From Patescibacteria group bacterium (GTDB lineage: Bacteria; Patescibacteriota; WWE3; 0-14-0-20-40-13), in NCBI GenBank assembly GCA_018896215.1, contig JAHINB010000006.1, forward strand, positions 2,941 to 66,940: a stretch of DNA of 64,000 nucleotides, written 5' to 3'. Each line of letters begins with the position of its first letter. Positions within the stretch are counted from its first letter, which is position 1. A program made the position numbers and the translations under genes. This document shows positions 11,645 to 63,151 of the stretch, one piece after another. The notes beneath the pieces were generated by a model, which was not told the DNA's origin, made no database searches, and saw nothing but the letters and a program-made list of their open reading frames with translations.

Positions 11645-13109
11645 TATAAAACACTCTATCTAAACTCATGCTCTTAAGAATTAAAGGCGATCTAGCATCA
11701 TCCCTTTGCACTACAACGTAATCGACTTCTGAAAAGTCGGTAACGGAATCTATTGAAACAACAATACCCAAAAATGTTGGTCTTACACTAGCATCATTAT
11801 AAGTGGCAAGTGTAATATTTTCCACCCCCGGCTTTTTATTTAAATAATTAGTAACCCGCATGTATCCAGTTGCCCAATCCTGAAGCCCAACGGCATTTAC
11901 TGCCATATGAGACCCACCAACAAGCGGGTTAAAGTAGGCAAAAAAATCTGGGAACAGAGGAAGTATTTGAACAGCAGATACAACAACCAGCACTACAGCA
12001 ACAAAAAACTGCTTTCGCGGAACTACCTTGGATAATGCGTAGCCTGCAAAAATTGCCAGTGGCGGAAAAAGGGGAATGAGGTACCTGTCTATCTTTTTTG
12101 TGGAAACTGTCATAAAAACAAAATAAACCAAAGTATAAATAGAAACCCCAAGTATCGTCATGGTTTTTGATGACTTTAGTCCTTTAAGCACAACTTTGTA
12201 ATTTGAAAATATTAGGTATAAAGCAACAGTTAAAAGAATTATTAAAACTGGGCTGGCTCTAAAAATAAATTGTGTGGGGTAAAACAGTATTCCTGGATTT
12301 AAAGATTCTTGCCCAAAGAAAATTTGGGGCTGCCCACCCTGACCTGTCTTAATAACCCCGTCGTAGATTATTTTTGTTATAACACGAATTGGATCTACCC
12401 AACAGGCTGGAAACAAAATTAAAAACGCTGTAAGTCCTGCTACTGCATAAATTACTAAGGACAGTATATTGCCGAATAACAGAGAGATTATTACAATGGT
12501 TGGAAATAATGTAAGGGAGGAGACCTTTGTCAATACTGCCAACCCAAATAATATCCCAGAAAAAATGGCGTCTTTAGTGCGTTTGGATTTTTGATACTTT
12601 ATAAAAAACAAAACGGAGTTAATTCCCAAAAGAGAAAGCATACCGTCTAGATGTAAAACCCTGGTGTTACCTATAAAAAATGGCTCCAGTAATAAAATTA
12701 AAACCGAATAAAAAGCTATCTTTTGATTAAACAATTTCTCAATCAATTTGTAGAGCAAAATTATAAAGGCGAAGTTAAAAAGTACTAAAGGAAGGGTCTC
12801 GGAAAATAATATCCAACGAAAATTGCTAACATTAAAATAAACAGGTCTTATCCCGTACTTTAATTTATAAAATACACTATATATCTCCTGCCCAAAACCA
12901 GAAAGCCACATGAGGGTAACTCCGGGGTGATATGTCCTATAAGTCTCTAAAAAATTATAGTTTTTAAGATATGCCCAAAATTGCACAGCCCTGTAGTTCC
13001 ATGCGGGAGCATCCACATTCACAATATCGTTTCCCAACATTGGCAGACGAGAAATAAAGTAGACGAGAGATAAAAATATCAGATTAAGATGTTTCTTTAG
13101 ATTTATCAT
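11598..13109 (-). CDS. Polytopic membrane protein, GT-C-like; member of the HPGVT-MW paralog family.
   Basis: WNYRAVQFWAYLKNYNFLETYRTYHPGVTLMWLSG motif shared with 27951-29450, 37092-38699 and 34046-35563. Many TMs plus a C-terminal soluble domain. Confidence 0.45.
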   Translation of the reverse strand: MINLKKHLNLIFLSLVYFISRLPMLGNDIVNVDAPAWNYRAVQFWAYLKNYNFLETYRTYHPGVTLMWLSGFGQEIYSVFYKLKYGIRPVYFNVSNFRWILFSETLPLVLFNFAFIILLYKLIEKLFNQKIAFYSVLILLLEPFFIGNTRVLHLDGMLSLLGINSVLFFIKYQKSKRTKDAIFSGILFGLAVLTKVSSLTLFPTIVIISLLFGNILSLVIYAVAGLTAFLILFPACWVDPIRVITKIIYDGVIKTGQGGQPQIFFGQESLNPGILFYPTQFIFRASPVLIILLTVALYLIFSNYKVVLKGLKSSKTMTILGVSIYTLVYFVFMTVSTKKIDRYLIPLFPPLAIFAGYALSKVVPRKQFFVAVVLVVVSAVQILPLFPDFFAYFNPLVGGSHMAVNAVGLQDWATGYMRVTNYLNKKPGVENITLATYNDASVRPTFLGIVVSIDSVTDFSEVDYVVVQRDDARSPLILKSMSLDRVFYIGSYDYYYLYKNIQL

Positions 13110-13983
13110 TACTCACTAGAAGCAAAAATCCACCAATAAGACTAACCGAGACTCGTGTGGCATGGTACAGCAGCGAAGATGTTGCCGACAGAACAGGGGA
13201 GATTCCCCAAAATAGTAAGAATTTACCATAGAAAAAATCTTGAATACCAATACCATTAAAAGACAAGGGCAAGAAACTTAAAAATCCAATTATAGGAAAT
13301 ACAAAAAAAGCCTGTGGGAGTGTAATTGATATACCAACTGACCTGGTGGCAAAAAAATGCGCCAAGTTTGCCACAATTTGAACGAGCAACGAAAAAAACA
13401 GAGACTTGACAATGCTATCTTTGTGAAAGCGATAGAGATGAATTGCATCGTTAAAAGGCTTTAATTTTGGAATTAGTCTGGAAAATAAATCAAGCGAAAC
13501 AAAACCAAGTATACAAAGAATCCAAAAAGCGATAAAAATCAAAATCCCCCAAAATCCCAAAAGTACAACCAAACTTATAGTCGAAAGTAAAGCTAAGATA
13601 ACTAAACCGGAAAGCCTGTTAGCAAAGGTTGCTCCAGTAGCTTTTGGCATATCATTAGTGTTTTTCCCAAGAACATAGGCTTTATAAACATCGCCCCCGA
13701 TACTCGTGGGCATAAAATTATTAAAGAAAGCCCCAATAAAATACAGCTTAATCAACTTAAAAACACCACGACCGTTAAACGAGGAAGAAAAAAAGATTAA
13801 AGACCGCCACCTAAAACCACTAATTATGTAATTAAGACAGATCATTAAAAATGACAAAAGCAGATACCACAAGTTGGCGGTTCTTATGGTAGCAAGTACC
13901 GAATTAAAATCCAACTTTTGATAGAGGATAGAAAGAACAAGAAGTGATATTACCAATCGTAAAATGAGGGATTTATTGCTCAT
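13084..13983 (-). CDS. Flippase-like membrane protein (lysylphosphatidylglycerol-synthase TM region / UPF0104-like).
   Basis: 299 aa, about 8 TMs, the RW motif (ISGFRWRSLIF), and adjacency to a GtrB/ArnC-type GT2. Confidence 0.45.
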   Translation of the reverse strand: MSNKSLILRLVISLLVLSILYQKLDFNSVLATIRTANLWYLLLSFLMICLNYIISGFRWRSLIFFSSSFNGRGVFKLIKLYFIGAFFNNFMPTSIGGDVYKAYVLGKNTNDMPKATGATFANRLSGLVILALLSTISLVVLLGFWGILIFIAFWILCILGFVSLDLFSRLIPKLKPFNDAIHLYRFHKDSIVKSLFFSLLVQIVANLAHFFATRSVGISITLPQAFFVFPIIGFLSFLPLSFNGIGIQDFFYGKFLLFWGISPVLSATSSLLYHATRVSVSLIGGFLLLVSNDKSKETS

Positions 13984-55033: not shown

Positions 55034-57349
55034 ATGACAAGCAACAAAAAGGCATTGGTTGGGATTCTGTTCTTTATTCTTTTAATCTTTGTCCGAAATA
55101 TCGCTCTTTGGTCCCAAGAGCAAACATTCATCTTTGCTGATACTGCCATCTACGCTTTACAGCTTTCCGCATTTTCCCAAAATATCACAAGTATCTTTTC
55201 GCAACACTCGAGCTTTTTAGGATGGAACCCTAATTATCTCTCTACTGGTATTCCAACCTTGTCTGTAGTCGACTTTGGTTACCTGTATCCACCAGACTTT
55301 GTCATAGCTTTAATTTCTAAAATTTTCGGAAATAGTTTACTGGTTTTTCCTTTTACCACCTTGCTTGCTTATTTACATCTGGCATTTGGAGCATTTTTTG
55401 TTTACAAAATATTAAAAGATTATTTTAAACTCGAAAATTATTCTAGTCTTTTTGGGGGACTTCTTTGGGTTATTACGGGTTACAATCTGGAATATTTAGC
55501 TGCAACCTCTGTTCTTTACGCTGGAAGTTATCTTCCTGTCTGTTTTTATCTAAATCTTAAAAGGAAAGAGAAAGATGAATTTAGATACTTTTTTTTGTTC
55601 TACCTACTTTTAGCCTTTAGCTTTTTAGCCGGATACCCCATGCCTTCAGTTCTTATAGTCTTGACAGTAACCACATACAATATATTAACAGGTGACAAGA
55701 TTAAGTACACACTCATTTCCGTAATCAAGGATAACCTAAGAGGGCTGTTTTTAATAACTTTTCCATTGATCTCGCCACTCTACTTTTCGGCTATTGCCAA
55801 TTTCCCCCAAAGTGTTCGAGGTACTGTTTTAACTTTGGAGGGTTTTATAAGCAACCCCATAAAAATATTTAATCTCGCGGAAGGGATTTTGCCAGTTAAT
55901 ACGCTTTTTAATACAGCAAGCTCCACAAACATTGTTCACCTCTCTTTGAGCACCGTTGTTTTAATAATTCTTTTACAAGCAAAAAACAAAGGGGAAGTTT
56001 TTAGAGATAAAAGACTTTTGTCCTTACTGGCACTTGCTATTTTTGGAGCAATTTTGTCCGCGGGAGGAACAACTTATTTTCCGACTTTAATTTATCTAAC
56101 AACTCCAATCATTAGTTTTTTTAGAAGGCTTGCTGTATTTTCTTTAATCCCAGGATTTGCGGTTTGTTTAATTGCCCCCTTTTATATTAAAAACGCCCTT
56201 GGTCAGAGAGGAATATCCCAGCCTTTGGGATTTGGGATTAAAATCTTTGCCATCCTGGCTCTTGTAACACAAGCCTATAAAATTGCCTTTATAGGAAAAG
56301 TGGAGATTCTAAATTATCCGGCGCTGGTTCAAAACCTAAGCATTATTTTTGTGATTGGAATGCTCTCTGTACTCTCTTTTATTGTTTATCATAAGAATAA
56401 AAGAATTGGTTTTGCCATTCTTGGTTTTGCCTTAATAGTTGAATCTGGAACTCTTGTTGCCAGTAAAGTTTACCTAAATTCTAAAACAAACCCCGAGGCG
56501 GTTTTCCAACCGAACGAGCTTACAAATTATTTAAAAGAGAATACTAAACCAGGAGAGCGCGTTGATATGTTATTTACACAGCATAGCTATAGTACAGACT
56601 ACCTAGGATTGGAACAAACGGCGGGATACATGTCATTAGCAAGCGAGTATGGTGTTAGAATAAATGAGCTTTTGCCTTTGCCCCAAAGCCAGTACGACTC
56701 CAAAAGCTTAAGGGACATTTTAGGAGTTAAATATATTGTAAGAAAAGGAGATTGGGAAGACACCAATCTAAAAAAAGTTGCCGAAATTAAGCAAAACCCT
56801 CTAAAACCTAACTTTTACTCATTTGATTATAATTCGCTTTCTTGGTGGCCAGATCCTGTGGACACTTATTATAGTGTTTATCAGAACCCCACGGCACTTC
56901 CAAGATTGTACTTAGCATCAAATATTATTCCAACAGCAAGACAATCAAAATATCTTTTGCCCTATTTCGAAAAGCTAGAAGATCCAAAAACCGTTTTTCT
57001 TGAAGCAGATAAATTACAACCAGGAAAAATTTCACCCGAGGGGGAAGTTGTCATAAAGGATTATCAAAGAAACTACATCAAAGCCGAGGTGACAGCAGAG
57101 AAACAAACATTCCTCGCCAATTCCACAGGTTTTTATCCTGGCTGGAAGGCAAGGATTAACGGAACAAAGGTTGCCCCAATTCGCACTAATTGGTTCATGA
57201 TGGGAGTATACCTGCCGGCGGGAGAAAACACAGTTGAGTTTATTTATACCCCTTACGAGGCAAACATTGGTCTGTTGTACATAATATTAGCAACAACATA
57301 TTGGTTTTTTTCCAGAATTCTTAGACATAAATATGAACAAACTTTATGA
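55034..57349 (+). CDS. Large polytopic membrane protein (771 aa); possibly YfhO-like GT-C.
   Basis: About 14 TMs in the N-terminal 480 aa, then a soluble C-terminal domain. Sits in the methyltransferase/GT sub-cluster. Confidence 0.35.
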   Translation: MTSNKKALVGILFFILLIFVRNIALWSQEQTFIFADTAIYALQLSAFSQNITSIFSQHSSFLGWNPNYLSTGIPTLSVVDFGYLYPPDFVIALISKIFGNSLLVFPFTTLLAYLHLAFGAFFVYKILKDYFKLENYSSLFGGLLWVITGYNLEYLAATSVLYAGSYLPVCFYLNLKRKEKDEFRYFFLFYLLLAFSFLAGYPMPSVLIVLTVTTYNILTGDKIKYTLISVIKDNLRGLFLITFPLISPLYFSAIANFPQSVRGTVLTLEGFISNPIKIFNLAEGILPVNTLFNTASSTNIVHLSLSTVVLIILLQAKNKGEVFRDKRLLSLLALAIFGAILSAGGTTYFPTLIYLTTPIISFFRRLAVFSLIPGFAVCLIAPFYIKNALGQRGISQPLGFGIKIFAILALVTQAYKIAFIGKVEILNYPALVQNLSIIFVIGMLSVLSFIVYHKNKRIGFAILGFALIVESGTLVASKVYLNSKTNPEAVFQPNELTNYLKENTKPGERVDMLFTQHSYSTDYLGLEQTAGYMSLASEYGVRINELLPLPQSQYDSKSLRDILGVKYIVRKGDWEDTNLKKVAEIKQNPLKPNFYSFDYNSLSWWPDPVDTYYSVYQNPTALPRLYLASNIIPTARQSKYLLPYFEKLEDPKTVFLEADKLQPGKISPEGEVVIKDYQRNYIKAEVTAEKQTFLANSTGFYPGWKARINGTKVAPIRTNWFMMGVYLPAGENTVEFIYTPYEANIGLLYIILATTYWFFSRILRHKYEQTL

Positions 57350-58070
57350 ATCAAAATACCATAGATTAGAAACTAATTACTGGTTGTTTATAGCACGAAG
57401 AGATGCGGTTATAAATTTAATTAAAAAGGTTGATATAGGTAAAACTGATAAAATTTTAGATATTGGTTGCTCCGGTGGTCCTCTCATAAATTTACTAAAA
57501 GAAAATGGGTTTATGAATATTTATGGAATCGACATTAGTGTGGACGCAATCAATTTATGTAAAAAAAGAGGCATAAATAATGTAACGGTTATGGATGGCA
57601 CAAAAACACTATATAAAGATGGGGAATTTGACACAATAATAGCTTCTGATATTTTAGAACATTTAAAGGACGAGGATTCTGCTTTATCTGAATGGTATAG
57701 ATTACTAAAACCTAATGGTAAATTAATACTATCTGTTCCTGCATTGAATTCTTTGTGGAGCGGTCATGATGAAATTAACGGACATTATAGAAGATATAAT
57801 AAATCATCGCTAATAAAGAGATTAGAAAAAGCACAATTTAAATTGCACAAAATCTCTTATTGGAACTTTACCCTCTTTTTTCCTATTTATGTACTAAGTA
57901 TGTTTCAACACCTTTTACCCAAAAATAAAAGCGCCTTAAAAGATCGCTTGTATGAGTTATGTCCCCTAATCAATGGAACATTAGTTGCTTTATTAAAAAC
58001 AGAGAATTTTTTCTTAAAATATATTAATTATCCGGTTGGAATTAGTATTTTTACGGTATGGAGAAAATAA
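57333..58070 (+). CDS. Class I SAM-dependent methyltransferase.
   Basis: ILDIGCSGGPLINLLKENGF (motif I); LLKPNGKLILSVP. Confidence 0.7.
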   Translation: MNKLYESKYHRLETNYWLFIARRDAVINLIKKVDIGKTDKILDIGCSGGPLINLLKENGFMNIYGIDISVDAINLCKKRGINNVTVMDGTKTLYKDGEFDTIIASDILEHLKDEDSALSEWYRLLKPNGKLILSVPALNSLWSGHDEINGHYRRYNKSSLIKRLEKAQFKLHKISYWNFTLFFPIYVLSMFQHLLPKNKSALKDRLYELCPLINGTLVALLKTENFFLKYINYPVGISIFTVWRK

Positions 58071-58091
58071 AACCAGAAGATCCGTCGCCGT

Positions 58092-58586
58092 ATGATTGAT
58101 ACTTCGATGTTTTTAGAAAAATATCTGCAAAATTACCGCTTTAAAATGGCGGCGCCTTATCTAATTGGAGATGTTTTGGATTTTGGCGGCAACAACGGAG
58201 AGTTAAAAAGGCTGGTTAAAGGCAAATATCTTGTTGTTAACTACGATCATTCCGTAATGAAAAATGCCCATTGTGACACCATTGTAAGTTTAGCGGTTAT
58301 TGAGCATATATCAGTTAAAGAAGTATTTAAGATTTTTAAAAAATTTAAAGATATTTTAAATATGAATGGTAGAATTTTTATAACAACCCCAACAAAAATG
58401 GCAAAGCCTGTTCTGGAATTTATGACTTTCTTTGGAATTTTTGATAAAGAAAATATGGGTGAGCATAAACACTATTGGAATGAAAAAGATATCCGCTATC
58501 TGGCAAAAAAAGCAGGCTTTGCGGTAAAAAAATATAAAAAATTCCAATTTGGATTTAATCAATTGGCTGTTTTTGAGCACAAGTAG
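58092..58586 (+). CDS. Small class I SAM-dependent methyltransferase-like protein.
   Basis: VLDFGGNNGEL, IVSLAVIEHI, NGRIFITTP. Confidence 0.5.
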   Translation: MIDTSMFLEKYLQNYRFKMAAPYLIGDVLDFGGNNGELKRLVKGKYLVVNYDHSVMKNAHCDTIVSLAVIEHISVKEVFKIFKKFKDILNMNGRIFITTPTKMAKPVLEFMTFFGIFDKENMGEHKHYWNEKDIRYLAKKAGFAVKKYKKFQFGFNQLAVFEHK

Positions 58587-58587
58587 T

Positions 58588-59748
58588 ATGGAAGAAAAAG
58601 AAATTAAAAATACCATATTTATAGTTACCACCCACATTTTATTTCGCGATATCTATAAACCCAACGAACCTGTGGAGGGTCCGTATACCTCTGTAATTAA
58701 TGCCCTTAGAGATAAAGCAAAACTTGTTGAAGTTCTAGGATTTCCTTTAATTGGCTACAAACACCCCATTATTTACGGTAAAGAATCCAGCACAAAAATC
58801 CTTAAGCTACCAAATTTCTTGGGTGTTATCCCTCCAATCAAATATCTGGTAGACATTGTTTTGACTATCGTACTTTTAACACAAACGCTTATCAAAAATC
58901 GCAAGGAAAGTATTATAGTAGTTGGAATTGATCCGCTTTCTTCAATCCCCGCTTTGATACTAAAGCCCATCTTTAGATTTAAGTTTATCTTCTATTGCGT
59001 TGATTTTAATGAGAATCGTTTTAAGAACGGTTTAATGCAAGGCATTTATCAGTATTTTGATCGGCTCTCCAGTATTAAAGCCGATCAAGTCTGGGTTGTT
59101 TGTGATTCGTTAAAGGAATACAAAAAGAAACACTTTGGGGCAGATTCGATTTACATTCCCAATTCCCCACTCCACGATCCAGCACTTAGCAAAGAAGGGA
59201 AAAATAAAAGAACTGGTAATAAATTGGCGTGGACTGGAACTCTTTTAACCGAAAGGCAATTTGGAATCTTTTTTGATGTGGTGGAAAATATCTTAAAAGT
59301 TAGACCCGATTTGGAGGTCTATTTGGTTCCCATAAAAGACCACGAAAAGTTTGAAACAATTATTAAAGAAAGAAAATTAAATAATGTCAAGGTGATTCGA
59401 CTTACAAGTCGCCGAGCCTGGCAAGAATTTGTGGCCACTTGCGATGTGGGACTGGCAGTTTATGACGATAAATTTGGGTCAACAAAATATATTGAGCCAC
59501 TTAAGATCTGGGATTTTATGCTTTGCGGAGTTCCTTTTATAATTTCCTGTGAGCCTTCTATTGCCAAACCTGTAGTGGATTCTAAAGTCTGTTACCTACT
59601 AGGACCCGCCAATAGTTTTCCCAATGAGATGGGATTAAAGAAGTTTTTGGAAAAGGGAAATCTTGATACTTTATTTGAAAAATGTCTTACCTTGTCTCGT
59701 GACTTCGCCATAGACAAGCGGATTATCTCATCTCTTAAATCCCTATAA
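58588..59748 (+). CDS. Putative glycosyltransferase (GT-B-like C-terminal domain).
   Basis: LAWTGTLLTERQFGIFFDVVENILKVRPDLEVYLVP...CGVPFIISCEP. The track ORF starts at 58549 inside the previous gene; MEEKEIK at 58588 is the likely start. Confidence 0.4.
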   Translation: MEEKEIKNTIFIVTTHILFRDIYKPNEPVEGPYTSVINALRDKAKLVEVLGFPLIGYKHPIIYGKESSTKILKLPNFLGVIPPIKYLVDIVLTIVLLTQTLIKNRKESIIVVGIDPLSSIPALILKPIFRFKFIFYCVDFNENRFKNGLMQGIYQYFDRLSSIKADQVWVVCDSLKEYKKKHFGADSIYIPNSPLHDPALSKEGKNKRTGNKLAWTGTLLTERQFGIFFDVVENILKVRPDLEVYLVPIKDHEKFETIIKERKLNNVKVIRLTSRRAWQEFVATCDVGLAVYDDKFGSTKYIEPLKIWDFMLCGVPFIISCEPSIAKPVVDSKVCYLLGPANSFPNEMGLKKFLEKGNLDTLFEKCLTLSRDFAIDKRIISSLKSL

Positions 59749-59758
59749 AAAAACAACT

Positions 59759-59808
59759 GACCGAATGCTCTGGAAGAGTGAACTACCTCTATCACAAAAC
59801 ATCCGGTC
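59759..59808. repeat. 50-bp imperfect-palindromic cassette-end repeat, copy A; immediately 3' of the stop of gene 59814-60359.
   Basis: gaccgaatgctctggaagagtgaactacctctatcacaaaacatccggtc. Termini are inverted (gaccgaatg / catccggtc). 46/50 identical to 60660-60709. Confidence 0.7.
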
Positions 59809-59813
59809 ACAGC

Positions 59814-60359
59814 CTAAAGCGGTATACTTTCGTGTCTCCTCCTCGCCATCTCCTCGTACTTCACCACCGCCATTTTGTTGAGCACGACTTCGTGCTCAAT
59901 CAGATTGGCGGGGAGATTCGACACCGAATGCCAATTCCCAGGGACATTGGGTGTTTCGGTTGTCTCGCAGATCAAGACTACCGAAATTTCCTTCCCTCGG
60001 GGGGTGTCGGTGAGGATTACACCAGCCAAATGGGGCTCTGTCGCGTATTCAACACCACCCAGCTCCCCATTTTTCACCCGAGCGATAGCATCAGGAAAGA
60101 ACCCGGGTTTGTCGGTCCACCTCACCATCGACCCCGGGTGATGCACCTTGTCGTGGTAGATCTTGTCTTCCCGAGGTGTCAGGAAGACCTCTACCACGGC
60201 CTCCGTTCGGCGAAGTATCACCTGATAAACCGCCGTGAGAGCCGTAATCCGGTTAACAGAGTTGTAGAACCTCTCCGTCCAAGGCTGGGCAACTTTCCCC
60301 AGCAAGCCAATCAGCGTTTCTTCTTCACCAGCAGTCAAACCACCGGTAATCGTAGCCAT
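59814..60359 (-). CDS. Nudix-fold protein with a degenerate Nudix box; encoded in GC-rich (about 55%) foreign DNA. Paralog of 61286-61807.
   Basis: About 35-40% aa identity to 61286-61807 across the full length (VILRR...VEVFL, HSPG vs HHPG, RV.K.ELG). GC content far above the host. Own promoter plus SD upstream. The antisense ORF 59778-60377 is a GC-rich artefact. Confidence 0.5.
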   Translation of the reverse strand: MATITGGLTAGEEETLIGLLGKVAQPWTERFYNSVNRITALTAVYQVILRRTEAVVEVFLTPREDKIYHDKVHHPGSMVRWTDKPGFFPDAIARVKNGELGGVEYATEPHLAGVILTDTPRGKEISVVLICETTETPNVPGNWHSVSNLPANLIEHEVVLNKMAVVKYEEMARRRHESIPL

Positions 60360-60408
60360 GAAAAACTCCTTTCCTGAGTGAGTTTGCTACATTCTAGAAC
60401 TGCGGTAA

Positions 60409-60438
60409 TTATATCATAAACTATAGGTATAAGTCAAA
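60409..60438 (-). promoter_or_regulatory. Near-consensus sigma70 promoter TTGACT-N18-TATAAT driving the cassette gene 59814-60359, followed by SD AGGAG 7 nt before the ATG.
   Basis: Read directly on the reverse strand of 60409-60438, and SD at about 60366-60372. Confidence 0.5.
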
Positions 60439-60440
60439 AT

Positions 60441-60567
60441 TGGGGTGTTATTTTTTTATTCTTTTTTGTAAGAATCCAAGACTTTGGCTATAAGAATGTA
60501 GTGGTGGGGAACAAGATTTTCGGGAAGATTACTAGTATTATAAAACTTGCCAACTTTGGGCTCTTGA
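60441..60567 (-). pseudogene. Truncated 3' fragment (last 35 codons or so plus 3' flank) of a paralog of the Nudix-fold gene 61286-61807.
   Basis: The reverse translation DQEPKVGKFYNTSNLPENLVPHHYILIAKVLDSYKKRI matches VEKEPKTGKFYDVRNLPENLLPHHYIVIAKVLDYYKKQ*. The downstream ggggt(g)ttatt flank is also conserved. Confidence 0.55.
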
Positions 60568-60659
60568 TCTATTTAAAATCACTAAACGAAACCTTAAATA
60601 AAATCCCTATTATAAAATCATTTTCTGCATTCCATGTATTTTTGTGCAGAAAATAAAGC

Positions 60660-60709
60660 GACCGAATGTTTTGGAAGAGTGAAATACCTCTAGCACAAAA
60701 CATCCGGTC
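60660..60709. repeat. 50-bp imperfect-palindromic cassette-end repeat, copy B; immediately 3' of the stop of gene 60719-61192.
   Basis: gaccgaatgttttggaagagtgaaatacctctagcacaaaacatccggtc. Confidence 0.7.
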
Positions 60710-60718
60710 GTAGCGCTT

Positions 60719-61192
60719 TTACATCTCCACACTTCGTCCCCTCACCACCGACTTCAAGCATTGCTCTATGATGGTGATATGGTGCGAAATCATTGGTGCT
60801 GGAAGAGCGGTTATCGGAAAGAGATGCGCATTCTCGGTTTCCGTGAGGGGGATTGTACTCAAATCCAACACCATAGGGATGTGGACTAGGTGACCCCGCA
60901 CTTCGTGCGGATTGTTTAGAACCAGACCAGAAAATGTGACGGGAATCCCAGAAATGTCCCATCTCAATTCCTTTACAGAAATGCGTCGTACGCACTCTTC
61001 AAATGTCTCATTTTTGAGAAGGAAACCTCCGGGCAGATGCCACATACCCGCATAGGACTGATCCTTCCCAGAGATCTCTCTCTTGATCAGCCAAATCCTC
61101 TCCCCGCTCACTACGAGGAGATCAACGACTGGCCATGGGACGACTTCCATGACCTCTAACCACCTGTCGTACGGAATAGTTTTTCCTGGCAT
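60719..61192 (-). CDS. Nudix hydrolase (canonical-looking Nudix box); GC about 50%.
   Basis: GMWHLPGGFLLKNETFEECVRRISVKELRW fits GX5EX7REUXEEXGU with minor deviations. Extended -10 (TGtTATAAT) and SD GGAGGT upstream. Confidence 0.6.
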   Translation of the reverse strand: MPGKTIPYDRWLEVMEVVPWPVVDLLVVSGERIWLIKREISGKDQSYAGMWHLPGGFLLKNETFEECVRRISVKELRWDISGIPVTFSGLVLNNPHEVRGHLVHIPMVLDLSTIPLTETENAHLFPITALPAPMISHHITIIEQCLKSVVRGRSVEM

Positions 61193-61285
61193 TCTTAACC
61201 TCCGTGGTAGTTTGTCCTGTGTATTGAAGTATCGATATTATAACATAGCAACAAAGAAAAAGCTATAGGATAGATAGATAGGGGT

Positions 61286-61807
61286 TTATTGCTTTTTGTA
61301 GTAATCTAACACCTTGGCAATAACAATATAGTGGTGCGGGAGGAGATTTTCTGGTAGATTTCGTACATCGTAAAATTTGCCAGTTTTAGGTTCTTTTTCA
61401 ACTTCACAAAGGAAAACCAACGAGTTTTCTGGTCCGCGACTGGTATGGAAATAATATGATCCGACAAATTCTGGCGGAAAGACAAAATTGACCCCCAATT
61501 CGTTTTTTTGCACCCTTTCAAAAGCATCTTGATAAGACCCTGGTCTATCGGAGGCTCTTAGAATTGTCCCGGGAGAATGGAGCATATTAGGGTAGTATGC
61601 ATCGGTCGGAGGGCGCTTAGCCAAAAAAACCTCAACTTTGCCCTGTTTTCTTCTTAAAATTACAGTTTCTATGGCAACTAGCACAAACTTAGCAGCCACA
61701 GCATTGTAGACGGGAGTTGGCATCTTGGGACCAACTTTATCTAACAAACTTACAAGCTTTTTTTCTTCGGTTTCGCTCAAGTTATCTGCGATGCTAAACA
61801 ATTCCAT
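61286..61807 (-). CDS. Nudix-fold protein (degenerate box); low-GC paralog of 59814-60359.
   Basis: LVAIETVILRRKQGKVEVFLAKR...HSPGTILRASDRPGSYQDAFERVQKNELGV. Confidence 0.5.
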   Translation of the reverse strand: MELFSIADNLSETEEKKLVSLLDKVGPKMPTPVYNAVAAKFVLVAIETVILRRKQGKVEVFLAKRPPTDAYYPNMLHSPGTILRASDRPGSYQDAFERVQKNELGVNFVFPPEFVGSYYFHTSRGPENSLVFLCEVEKEPKTGKFYDVRNLPENLLPHHYIVIAKVLDYYKKQ

Positions 61808-61825
61808 AGGCAGTATTAAAATTCT

Positions 61826-63151
61826 TTAGAACCTCTTTAGAAACTCGTTAATCTTACCAGCCATATAGTCAATGTGACGATTGTCTAGTTTAGGATAAAC
61901 TCCCAAAAAGAAGGTGTTGTAAAGAATTCTATCAGAATTTTCTAGGTTGCCTACAATTCTCATATTTATGCCACGATAAGCCGGTTGCTTAGTAAGGTTG
62001 CCACCAAACAGCGTTCGGGTTTGGATTTTGTTTTCTTCCAAAAACCTTGTGATCTCTAGTCGATCAAATTTGGCATCGTCTTTAATTGTAAGTGGATAGG
62101 CAAACCAAGAAGGTTTCGCGCCTGTTGTGGCTTTTGGCAAGACAAAAAATCTTTCCCATCTACCTTCTTTGGCATGATAAGCAAATCTTGCAAAATTTTT
62201 CCTTCTTATTCTTGTAAATTCGTTAAGTCTTTTAAGTTGAATTACCCCCATAGCAGCCTGTGGCTCAATAGGCTTTAAATTATAACCAATCTGACTAAAA
62301 ATATACTTGTGGTCGTAGGGCTTCCCGCCAATCTTGTAATTAAACCTAGCATTACAGGCACCATATCTTCCTTTTTCGTCTCCCCTGCACCAGCAAGCCC
62401 TGCCCCAATCGCGCAACGATCTGGTAATGCGCTCAAAAATACGGTCGTTGTAGTTGACCGCCCCACCTTCCCCCATGGTTAAATGATGCGGAGGATAAAA
62501 AGATTGGGTAGAAAGAATACCAAAACTACCAGTCTTTTTTCCTTTATAAATTGACCCCAGAGCATCGCAGTTATCCTCAATTAAAAACAAACCCTTCTCT
62601 TTACAAAAATTGACCAGCAAATCCATATCGTGAGGGTTTCCTAAAGTATGAGCCAAAAAAACCGCTTTGGTTTTACTAGATGTTGCATGTTGTAAATCCT
62701 CTATCTTTATAGAATATGTTCCCAGGTTAACATCCATAAAAACTGGTACTAACCCCAATTGAATTATTGGATTAACGGTTGTAGGAAAACCACAGGCAAG
62801 AGTAATAACTTCATCTCCAGGATGAAGCCTCTCTGGAAACATGGGAGACATTAAAGAAGCTACAGATAGTAAATTAGAACTGGAGCCAGAGTTTGTAATA
62901 ATACTGCCTGTTGCTCCAATATACTTTGCCAGCCCCCTTTCAAAATCTTCGGCAAATTGACCCAAACCAAACCAACCATCTAACCAAGTAGAAATAACAT
63001 TGTTAACCTCTTTATCATCAAAAACCGATCCGGCGTATTGGATAAACGACTTTCCGGGAATAAACTCGCTATCTTCTTGCTTTTTTATTTTAAAAATTTC
63101 TTGAACTATCTTTTTTATTTGTAATCTTAATTCTTTTTCTTTTTTATCCAT
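61826..63151 (-). CDS. DegT/DnrJ/EryC1-family PLP enzyme, RfbH/DdhC-like (CDP-6-deoxy-D-xylo-4-hexulose-3-dehydrase type).
   Basis: 441 aa. N-terminus IPGKSFIQYAGSVFDDKEVNNVISTWLDGWFGLGQFAEDFERGLAKYIG and GDEVITLACGFPTT, typical of RfbH-type E1 dehydrases. Confidence 0.65.
   Translation of the reverse strand: MDKKEKELRLQIKKIVQEIFKIKKQEDSEFIPGKSFIQYAGSVFDDKEVNNVISTWLDGWFGLGQFAEDFERGLAKYIGATGSIITNSGSSSNLLSVASLMSPMFPERLHPGDEVITLACGFPTTVNPIIQLGLVPVFMDVNLGTYSIKIEDLQHATSSKTKAVFLAHTLGNPHDMDLLVNFCKEKGLFLIEDNCDALGSIYKGKKTGSFGILSTQSFYPPHHLTMGEGGAVNYNDRIFERITRSLRDWGRACWCRGDEKGRYGACNARFNYKIGGKPYDHKYIFSQIGYNLKPIEPQAAMGVIQLKRLNEFTRIRRKNFARFAYHAKEGRWERFFVLPKATTGAKPSWFAYPLTIKDDAKFDRLEITRFLEENKIQTRTLFGGNLTKQPAYRGINMRIVGNLENSDRILYNTFFLGVYPKLDNRHIDYMAGKINEFLKRF

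Follow-up and report, generated by a model that had tools for sequence, protein, structure and literature searches.

An acquired insert of Nudix-fold genes at the junction of two surface glycan operons in a Patescibacteria group bacterium

Organization of the locus

A stretch of 64,000 nucleotides from the Patescibacteria group bacterium assembly GCA_018896215.1 (contig JAHINB010000006.1, positions 2,941 to 66,940; hereafter the window) carries a laterally acquired insert of ~2.08 kb at the junction of two surface glycan operons. The whole insert covers 2,077 bp, between the stop of a glycosyltransferase-like gene on the plus strand (59748) and that of a DegT aminotransferase gene on the minus strand (61826). 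The interval flagged in the initial annotation, which was made from the sequence alone, is filled by three minus-strand open reading frames (ORFs), g1, g2 and g3, whose products are diverged members of one Nudix-fold family. The insert and its genes are the following:

59749..61825, no strand assigned: the whole insert, delimited by 11 related loci with adjoining glycosyltransferase and DegT homologues and by the GC profile
59814..60359, minus strand: g1, 181 amino acids (aa), Nudix-fold; 54.2% GC, 63.7% GC at third codon positions (GC3), codon usage z -5.7
60719..61192, minus strand: g2, 157 aa, Nudix-fold, divergent member of the same family; 49.6% GC, GC3 56.3%, codon usage z -5.0
61286..61807, minus strand: g3, 173 aa, paralogue of g1; 40.8% GC, GC3 38%, codon usage z -0.7

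The glycosyltransferase-like gene on the left side codes for a 386-aa protein and is preceded by two methyltransferase genes and a gene for a YfhO-type protein. The DegT gene on the right side is preceded by genes for a short-chain dehydrogenase/reductase (SDR) epimerase, a DUF4012 protein and a family 2 glycosyltransferase (GT2). The insertion site is the convergent junction of the glycosyltransferase operon with the DegT-epimerase operon, in agreement with the initial placement of the genes between two glycosylation operons. The same locus is found on contig JAKLRK010000018.1 of assembly GCA_022012835.1, and 'hypothetical protein L6255_03700 [Candidatus Parcubacteria bacterium]' has the same sequence as the g1 protein.

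The mean GC content of the window is 36.4%, with a standard deviation of 3.2% among 500-bp windows, and the peak of 55% at g1 lies ~5.8 standard deviations above the mean. Codon usage, scored as a leave-one-out likelihood against the 43 other host ORFs of the window, places g1 and g2 at the two lowest scores. Both sliding-window GC and codon usage confirm that these two genes are foreign in composition (54.2% GC and z -5.7 for g1, 49.6% and z -5.0 for g2). The idea of a foreign island does not extend to g3, which is host-like in both GC content (40.8%) and codon usage (z -0.7).

Absence of the insert in related genomes

A metagenome scan with the carboxyl terminus of the glycosyltransferase-like protein gave 13 related loci (other loci and contigs compared are designated by L-numbers, and member proteins of the family by P-numbers). 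At 11 of them (L023-L033) the glycosyltransferase and DegT homologues converge with nothing in between, either overlapping or separated by at most ~120 nt; the fetched flanks of these 11 loci hold no family member. It is because the two genes are directly adjacent in these relatives that the segment separating them in the window is read as an insertion. The glycosyltransferases of the 11 empty sites are 49-77% identical, the nearest standing at ~76% at the protein level. In locus L012 a gene of the g1 clade, P0002 (62% identical, 52.8% GC), directly follows the glycosyltransferase gene in reversed orientation, and the site is empty in L023, which is close to L012 (84% nucleotide identity in the glycosyltransferase gene). 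Cassettes of the g1 clade are found at the same glycosyltransferase junction in two lineages.

The proposal of a horizontally acquired and rapidly rearranging mini-island is upheld by the absence of the insert at these 11 junctions, by the variable presence of g2 (see below) and by the foreign composition, codon usage and Shine-Dalgarno (SD) sequences of g1 and g2. Neither an integrase nor a transposase was found among the called genes over 17 kb on the glycosyltransferase side and 10 kb on the DegT side, and the island ends carry no terminal repeats. A search of genome contigs with the glycosyltransferase protein gave no match, and the same was true of a search of metagenome contigs with the g1-clade alignment. 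No evidence for a phage or plasmid origin was obtained: no close relatives of g1, g2 or g3 were found in IMG/VR, and none of g1 among INPHARED phages or PLSDB plasmids. In PHROG, g2 has a generic MutT/NUDIX match while g1 and g3 have none.

The gene set for the YfhO-type protein, the methyltransferases and the 386-aa glycosyltransferase (window 55034-59748) is syntenic across several lineages of the candidate phyla radiation (CPR; L024, L026, L040). The 386-aa protein belongs to an unannotated conserved family, with no Pfam hit, whose members are 44-77% identical among relatives.

Strain variation and recombination

The identical g1 protein (100%) is encoded on contigs from seven samples. In four of them the order is DegT-g3-g2-remnant-g1, and in three it is DegT-g3-g1, without g2 and the remnant. 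Except for the end of g3, the two forms share 99.9-100% identity. Three features of the insert bear on this difference:

60575..61494, minus strand: tract that is recombinant between strains with and without g2, made of the diverged 3' third of g3 and 830 nt limited to g2-containing strains (alignment A2)
60456..60574, minus strand: remnant ('B' allele), the last 39 codons and the stop of a g3-type gene
60581..60625, plus strand: probable remnant of a donor glycosyltransferase 3' end with the A-run downstream of it (repeat D3, 60601-60617 versus 59737-59753)

The alignment of the two forms is identical to about codon 113 of g3 and then drops to ~83% over 90 nt (61494-61405). The 830 extra nt of the window comprise its own g3 3' end, the g2 promoter, g2, a hairpin and ~70 nt, after which identity resumes at 60574. 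All 48 strain mismatches of the L008 alignment, which stops at the end of g3, fall within at most its final 393 nt.

In strains that lack g2, the 3' end of the intact g3 matches the remnant at 100%; identity of the remnant to the g3 3' end of the window itself is 73%. Because alignment identity resumes at 60574, it is recognized as the g3 3' end of the strains without g2. The truncated fourth gene copy noticed initially (60456-60574) is real, and represents the displaced original 3' end of g3. The ~70 nt that follow the g2 hairpin (hairpin A, see below) are probably left from the 3' end of a donor glycosyltransferase gene: the sequence at 60581..60625 reads ...CTTAAATAAAATCCCTAT..., as compared to CTTAAATCCCTATAA at the end of the glycosyltransferase gene. 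The insert contains two modules with the organization g3 3' end, promoter, g2 or g1, and hairpin. Identity between their flanking parts amounts to 73% over 120 nt and 85% over 65 nt; the g1 and g2 cores have no similarity at the DNA level.

To judge by these alignments, the site may exist in two forms, DegT-g3B-g1-hairpin and DegT-g3A-g2-hairpin, which the strain of the window would have stacked in a single recombination event. One end of the event would be anchored by homology inside g3 and the other would be an illegitimate join, leaving the 3' end of g3B as the truncated copy. Stacking of two alleles appears to be the simplest reading; a full tandem ancestor that suffered two different deletions fits the data equally well.

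Expression signals and cassette structure

Genes g1 and g2 are self-contained cassettes, each with an AT-rich promoter-like region, a strong SD sequence, a GC-rich ORF and a 20-bp hairpin terminator. Their signals are:

60408..60437, minus strand: promoter-like site of g1, TTGACT-18-TATAAT with TGa ahead of the -10 (TG at -15/-14), 11 matches out of 12
60370-60366, minus strand: SD sequence AGGAG of g1, read from the sequence
61198..61245, minus strand: expression signals of g2, an extended -10 TGTTATAAT at 61245-61237 and the SD sequence GGAGGT at 61203-61198
59759..59808, minus strand: hairpin B, after g1, with a ~20-bp stem followed by a T7 run (59753-59747); -29.4 kcal/mol, z -5.4
60660..60709, minus strand: hairpin A, after g2, followed by a T-rich tail; -28 kcal/mol, z -5.7

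Sites that match the sigma-70 consensus at 11 of 12 positions occur five times in the window versus 4.5 times in shuffled sequences, which is not above chance in such AT-rich DNA, and the promoter call is therefore positional. Promoter-like motifs that also lie upstream of homologous cassettes in other genomes give it an added ground. A 5-mer SD sequence precedes 4 of 46 window ORFs (1480-2625, 13084-13983, g1 and g2), an approximate count over ORFs of at least 150 aa in which the motif was sought within 20 nt of the first ATG taken as start. Translation initiation in this genome seems to be largely without SD sequences, and the remark that host genes lack them holds well, two of the four exceptions being g1 and g2. 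The claim that every gene has its own promoter and SD sequence is valid for g1 and g2, with a promoter that is positional only, and wrong for g3. Since g3 has neither signal and starts 18 nt past the DegT stop, it is probably co-transcribed with DegT.

Hairpins A and B are 85% identical over 65 nt. The two copies differ by A-to-G changes, and G-U pairing is kept on the minus-strand RNA only; for this reason they fit an RNA terminator on the coding strand, and they look like the intrinsic terminators of g1 and g2. The window has only these two copies of the motif. When a 16-nt sub-pattern was scanned against viral contigs and a 20-nt one against genome representatives, only partial matches were obtained in which the rest of the hairpin is absent, and no Rfam match was found for the island and three homologous loci. 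Upstream of P0003 and P0009, which belong to different genomes (L013:330-441; L040:4890-5000), a conserved region features the promoter-like motif CTTTACAAACTATGGG.TT.GTG.TA.AAT. Their 5' leader of ~100 nt has a conserved nested hairpin, CCGGATT..GGCC-AAAA.A-GCC..GTCCGG (two sequences), with no Rfam match.

The GC enrichment of the g1 clade is confined to the ORF, as found for its four members with known flanks:

g1: GC 54%, GC3 64%
P0002: GC 53%, GC3 62%
P0003: GC 55%, GC3 63%
P0009: GC 57%, GC3 66%

The flanks of these ORFs have 36-43% GC and their upstream regions are AT-rich in all four cases. The members of the clade are only 44-62% identical in protein, and family members outside it have a host-like GC content. 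Conventionally this would be explained by repeated, recent transfers out of a GC-rich pool that has not been sampled; it counts against this that all four genes sit in AT-rich genomes. A 199-aa ORF on the plus strand (59778-60377) is antisense to all of g1. An overlapping antisense gene was rejected as the cause of the high GC content of g1: none of the synonymous shuffles closes the frame, and P0003 and P0009 do not conserve it. It stays open because g1 uses no TTA, CTA or TCA codons, and is a by-product of GC-rich codon usage.

The cassettes are akin to the moron-like or flank-homology cassettes of polysaccharide loci: both are self-contained units of promoter, ORF and terminator with a foreign composition, are exchanged at a surface glycan locus through recombination and vary at strain level. 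They differ from them in that no phage or mobile-element context was found, the cargo is always the same protein family, and the GC enrichment is limited to the ORF and persists across a clade with 44-62% protein identity.

A Nudix-fold family of CPR bacteria

The products of g1 and g3 are 38% identical (E 3e-35), which confirms that they are mutually paralogous. The search profile was built from g1, g3 and a few close homologues. The hidden Markov model (HMM) of the family scores g3 at 7.7e-71 and g2 at 3.6e-17, and an hhalign comparison of g2 with the family gives a probability of 98.9% (E 1.3e-17). The AlphaFold2 model of g1 has a mean predicted local distance difference test (pLDDT) of 96.6, and all its top 50 Foldseek matches in the PDB are Nudix proteins (AraR, NrtR, GDP-mannose mannosyl hydrolase, MutT). 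The model of g2 (pLDDT 90.9) has top PDB matches that are likewise all Nudix. The models show a single Nudix domain with N-terminal helices and one C-terminal helix. The initial assignment of three Nudix-fold genes is correct, directly for g1 and g2 and through the 38% identity to g1 for g3.

The canonical Nudix box is GX5EX7REUXEEXGU, with three metal-binding or catalytic glutamates. The motif of g1 reads HHPG...D83...R94-x4-E99-LG, with the box G-x6-D-x10-R-V-K-N-G-E-L-G, and g3 has G-x6-D-x10-R-x4-E-L-G with R-V-Q-K-N-E-L-G. In g2 the box is GGFLLKNE-x7-RISVKELRW (G-x5-E-x7-R-I-S-V-K-E-L-R-W). The three proteins keep only the arginine and the last glutamate of the REUXEE core and therefore depart from the canonical box. 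The reading that one gene bears a canonical box was mistaken: two of the three REUXEE glutamates and the last glycine are missing from the box of g2. The associated picture of a catalytic Nudix protein paired with degenerate partners is not supported either, since g1, g2 and g3 are one family (98.9%, 3.6e-17) with the same reduced motif and the same invariants, namely R, D, H-x-P-G, R-x4-E, R-G and L-P.

Only g2 matches the Pfam NUDIX family PF00293 (35.4 bits versus a gathering cutoff of 21.1); g1 and g3 have no Pfam match at E up to 1 and none in NCBIfam. PF00293 is reached by 27 of 103 aligned members of the family. The profile search found 899 clusters (50% identity representatives, E<=1e-3). 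The named members are all from CPR bacteria (Saccharibacteria, Kerfeldbacteria, Moraniibacteria and Parcubacteria) and nearly all are labelled 'hypothetical'. Among solved structures the best profile matches are 2fml, AraR (5bs6) and NrtR (3gz8), with E of 8e-5 to 6e-4, while the profile of alignment A1 gave no match in the PDB. In the literature search, neither this family nor the occurrence of Nudix genes in glycan loci of CPR bacteria was found described.

P0155, P0048, P0082 and P0047 are each made of two fused family domains. Other fusion partners are a canonical NUDIX domain (P0153, 528 aa), an N-terminal cupin (P0193/P0119, ~308 aa) and, in P0260 (339 aa), a C-terminal cupin PF01050 of the phosphomannose isomerase (PMI) type. 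Adjacent paralogue pairs are found in the window and in L040 (P0009/P0010).

Possible function

Several family members are encoded among genes for nucleotide sugars. P0155 lies in the cluster RmlB-NUDIX-RmlC-RmlD-P0155-NUDIX, beside ManC and PGM genes, and in an RmlA-NUDIX-RmlB-RmlC cluster P0169 overlaps the last part of an RmlD-like gene. P0009 and P0010, the nearest outgroup to g1, are located among genes for RmlC, an SDR protein, a homologue of the 386-aa glycosyltransferase, YfhO and WbqC, and P0002 and the g2 homologue P0006 come after glycosyltransferase genes. Nucleoside diphosphate (NDP)-sugar or glycosyltransferase loci account for ~6 of the 12 sampled family contexts. The fusions to cupin and PMI-type cupin domains point the same way, and so does the sugar-binding AraR domain among the best profile matches to solved structures. 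An rml-type operon of another genome (L036:1-6632) holds five Nudix-type domains: those of a 176-aa family member, of a NUDIX gene placed between RmlB and RmlC, of P0155 with its two domains after RmlD and of one more NUDIX gene. It is followed by a Fic gene.

The best overall explanation, to which we give an even chance of being right, is an acquired insert with stacked alleles whose Nudix proteins act on nucleotide sugars. The proteins would act as homo- or heterodimers that bind a nucleotide sugar or a related sugar ligand. The ligand would probably be hydrolysed at the reduced, single-metal Nudix site, and hydrolysis would trim or redirect the precursor pool of the neighbouring glycosylation genes. 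Gmm (GDP-mannose mannosyl hydrolase, GDPMH) plays such a role in colanic-acid and O-antigen clusters. Going by context and residues, accessory handling of nucleotide sugars for the adjacent glycosylation machinery is the most likely role.

GDPMH (Gmm/WcaH/NudD; 1RYA) resembles the proteins of the insert in being a small stand-alone Nudix protein encoded among nucleotide-sugar genes and is among the top Foldseek matches of the g1 and g2 models. Its box keeps G-x5-E, the arginine and the last glutamate, and the same two glutamates are lost in RISVKE of g2 and RLTMAE of the Escherichia coli enzyme. In the alignment of g2 and P0006 with 1RYA, residues D22, R37, R65 and E70 are aligned with the conserved D, R, R and E of g2. 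The loss of Nudix residues in GDPMH accompanies attack at the sugar carbon (PMC5389931). The sequence similarity is however marginal (family profile versus 1RYA, E ~1), and the catalytic His124/Gln123 and Tyr103 have no clear counterparts; Arg52 of GDPMH is aligned with Phe57 of g2, and the His124 region is not alignable by MAFFT. Moreover, g1 and g3 have PG[ST] instead of PGG and a box four residues longer, and the neighbours at this locus are of the DegT/SDR type (amino or deoxy sugar) rather than gmd-fcl-manC-manB.

The tandem fusions and the adjacent paralogue pairs suggest that the family acts as dimers, an arrangement that recalls the EvaA-type NDP-hexose 2,3-dehydratases. These are also Nudix-fold proteins dedicated to NDP-sugar pathways, where they work beside 4,6-dehydratases and DegT-type aminotransferases. 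Of the two Nudix-like domains of EvaA one is active and the other a remnant (PMC8987622), a build that may parallel the fusions and pairs of the family. The products of g1, g2 and g3 differ from this single two-domain protein in having one domain each and no Pfam match to hexose dehydratases.

Several findings weigh against this favoured explanation. Of the sampled contexts, about half have no relation to glycans (L009, L010, L011, L013, L038). The fold search singles out no substrate clade, as MutT, NUDT18 and NUDX1 score about as well as GDPMH, and in the NCBIfam GDPMH model NF011963 g2 reaches 21.4 bits versus a cutoff of 146, while g1 and g3 give no match. By profile, the solved proteins nearest to the family are AraR and NrtR, which are sensors without catalytic activity. 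A donor allele with g2 and without g1 was not directly observed. Finally, in relatives the same DegT/epimerase operon operates with no gene of this kind at the locus, and the genes are therefore accessory and not part of a core pathway.

A first alternative, possible but rather unlikely, is that these are generic house-cleaning or nucleotide-salvage Nudix proteins which occupy a permissive convergent gap and are functionally unrelated to glycosylation. Insertion at a convergent junction is neutral, and the own promoters and terminators of g1 and g2 imply no dependence on the neighbouring operons. The family contexts are also mixed: the member of L009 lies by succinyl-CoA ligase and two small NUDIX genes, that of L010 near RNase Y/YmdB, and those of L011 and L038 among unrelated genes. 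Chance occupancy of a gap accounts poorly, however, for g1-clade cassettes at the same glycosyltransferase junction in two lineages and for ~6 of 12 contexts being NDP-sugar or glycosyltransferase loci, some with translational overlap inside rml operons. Fusions to PMI-type cupins exist, and the canonical catalytic glutamates for ordinary pyrophosphohydrolase activity are missing. At L009:6001-7364 (Saccharibacteria) P0181 is followed by the two small PF00293 NUDIX genes (126 and 135 aa), with no glycan context.

It is less probable, and doubtful, that the proteins are non-catalytic sensors or adaptors, that is AraR/NrtR-like Nudix proteins without a DNA-binding domain that bind a derivative of a sugar or nucleotide and regulate partner enzymes by protein contact. 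The ligand of AraR is a sugar, L-arabinose. NrtR and AraR structures (3GZ5/3GZ8, 5BS6, 2FML) supply the best PDB profile matches (2fml, 5bs6 and 3gz8 at E ~1e-4) and are also at the top of the Foldseek list for g1. A degenerate Nudix box, the RG motif and the C-terminal 'LP..(i)..H' motif are common to both groups; the REUXEE core is reduced to R-x4-E, and the AraR box is aligned with a single gap. Yet those proteins are transcription factors with a C-terminal winged helix, while g1, g2 and g3 code for 157-181 aa, a Nudix domain with short helical extensions, and have neither a winged helix-turn-helix or other output domain nor a Pfam match to a DNA-binding domain. The fusions of the family are to a cupin, a canonical NUDIX domain or a second copy of itself, and no regulator fusion was found. 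The strictly conserved Arg, Asp, His and Glu across ~900 clusters also fit catalysis, and GDPMH is active with the same reduced box (PMC5389931).

A bolder version of the nucleotide-sugar reading, to be taken as doubtful too, sees the glycosyltransferase/DegT junction as a hotspot of cassette exchange. The swapped reduced-box Nudix dimers would be nucleotide-sugar glycosyl hydrolases, or 'editors', that re-program the glycan of the strain, and the GC content of the g1 clade would be kept by a selective or mechanistic constraint instead of coming from a recent GC-rich donor.

The initially contemplated module of defence or counter-defence, with NAD, ADP-ribose or nucleotide signals as its targets, is very improbable. 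The island is variable and foreign-looking with self-contained promoters, NrtR-type domains bind ADP-ribose (3gz8), and g2 has a PHROG MutT/NUDIX match and a weak match to the candidate family PDC-S07 (E 5.6e-5, 20.8 bits). The latter is a single generic hit in PADLOC-DB v2, however, while g1 and g3 have no PADLOC or PHROG match. The three Nudix-type genes are the only ones of the island, with no effector, sensor, toxin, nuclease or other partner gene, and 10 kb on each side are glycan genes. The absence of relatives in the viral and plasmid databases searched and the recurrent association of the family with sugar-nucleotide enzymes also speak against it. YafQ/ParE-like genes and a CdiA C-terminal domain are found near the family member of L011 (7006-7553 and 12578-12924), and the gene upstream of that of L013 (2-283) ends like what is presumably an AbiEii-type nucleotidyltransferase. 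These toxin-antitoxin-type neighbours are probably coincidental content of variable regions.

An integron-like or recombinase-driven cassette array that uses the 65-nt hairpin as recombination site hardly deserves credit: a conserved imperfect hairpin does follow two unrelated ORFs and cassettes are present or absent among strains, but the genes called over 10 kb on the DegT side and 17 kb on the glycosyltransferase side include neither an integrase nor a transposase, each cassette has its own promoter-like site while integron cassettes are promoterless, the hairpin arms are unlike attC R''/R' cores, the window holds two hairpin copies and sub-pattern scans gave only partial matches elsewhere, the strain difference maps to homologous recombination in g3 and not to the hairpin, and the G-U pairs are better explained by an RNA terminator of the coding strand.

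Significance for CPR surface glycans

CPR bacteria, or Patescibacteria, are tiny episymbionts whose surface glycans are likely to be central to host attachment and phage recognition. To our knowledge, almost nothing has been described on how these glycans vary. The locus provides a case of gene gain or loss at strain level inside a glycan cluster, the genomes being otherwise 99.9% identical. A small evolutionary puzzle is added by the g1 clade, whose GC richness is limited to the ORF.

The locus also draws attention to an unannotated Nudix subfamily of ~900 clusters at 50% identity, most of them 'hypothetical'. If its members turn out to be hydrolases of nucleotide sugars with a reduced site like that of GDPMH, a mechanism known from one enterobacterial enzyme would be extended to a whole radiation. 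This would assign a function to a common 'hypothetical' protein of CPR bacteria and would offer a handle on glycan diversification in uncultured bacteria.

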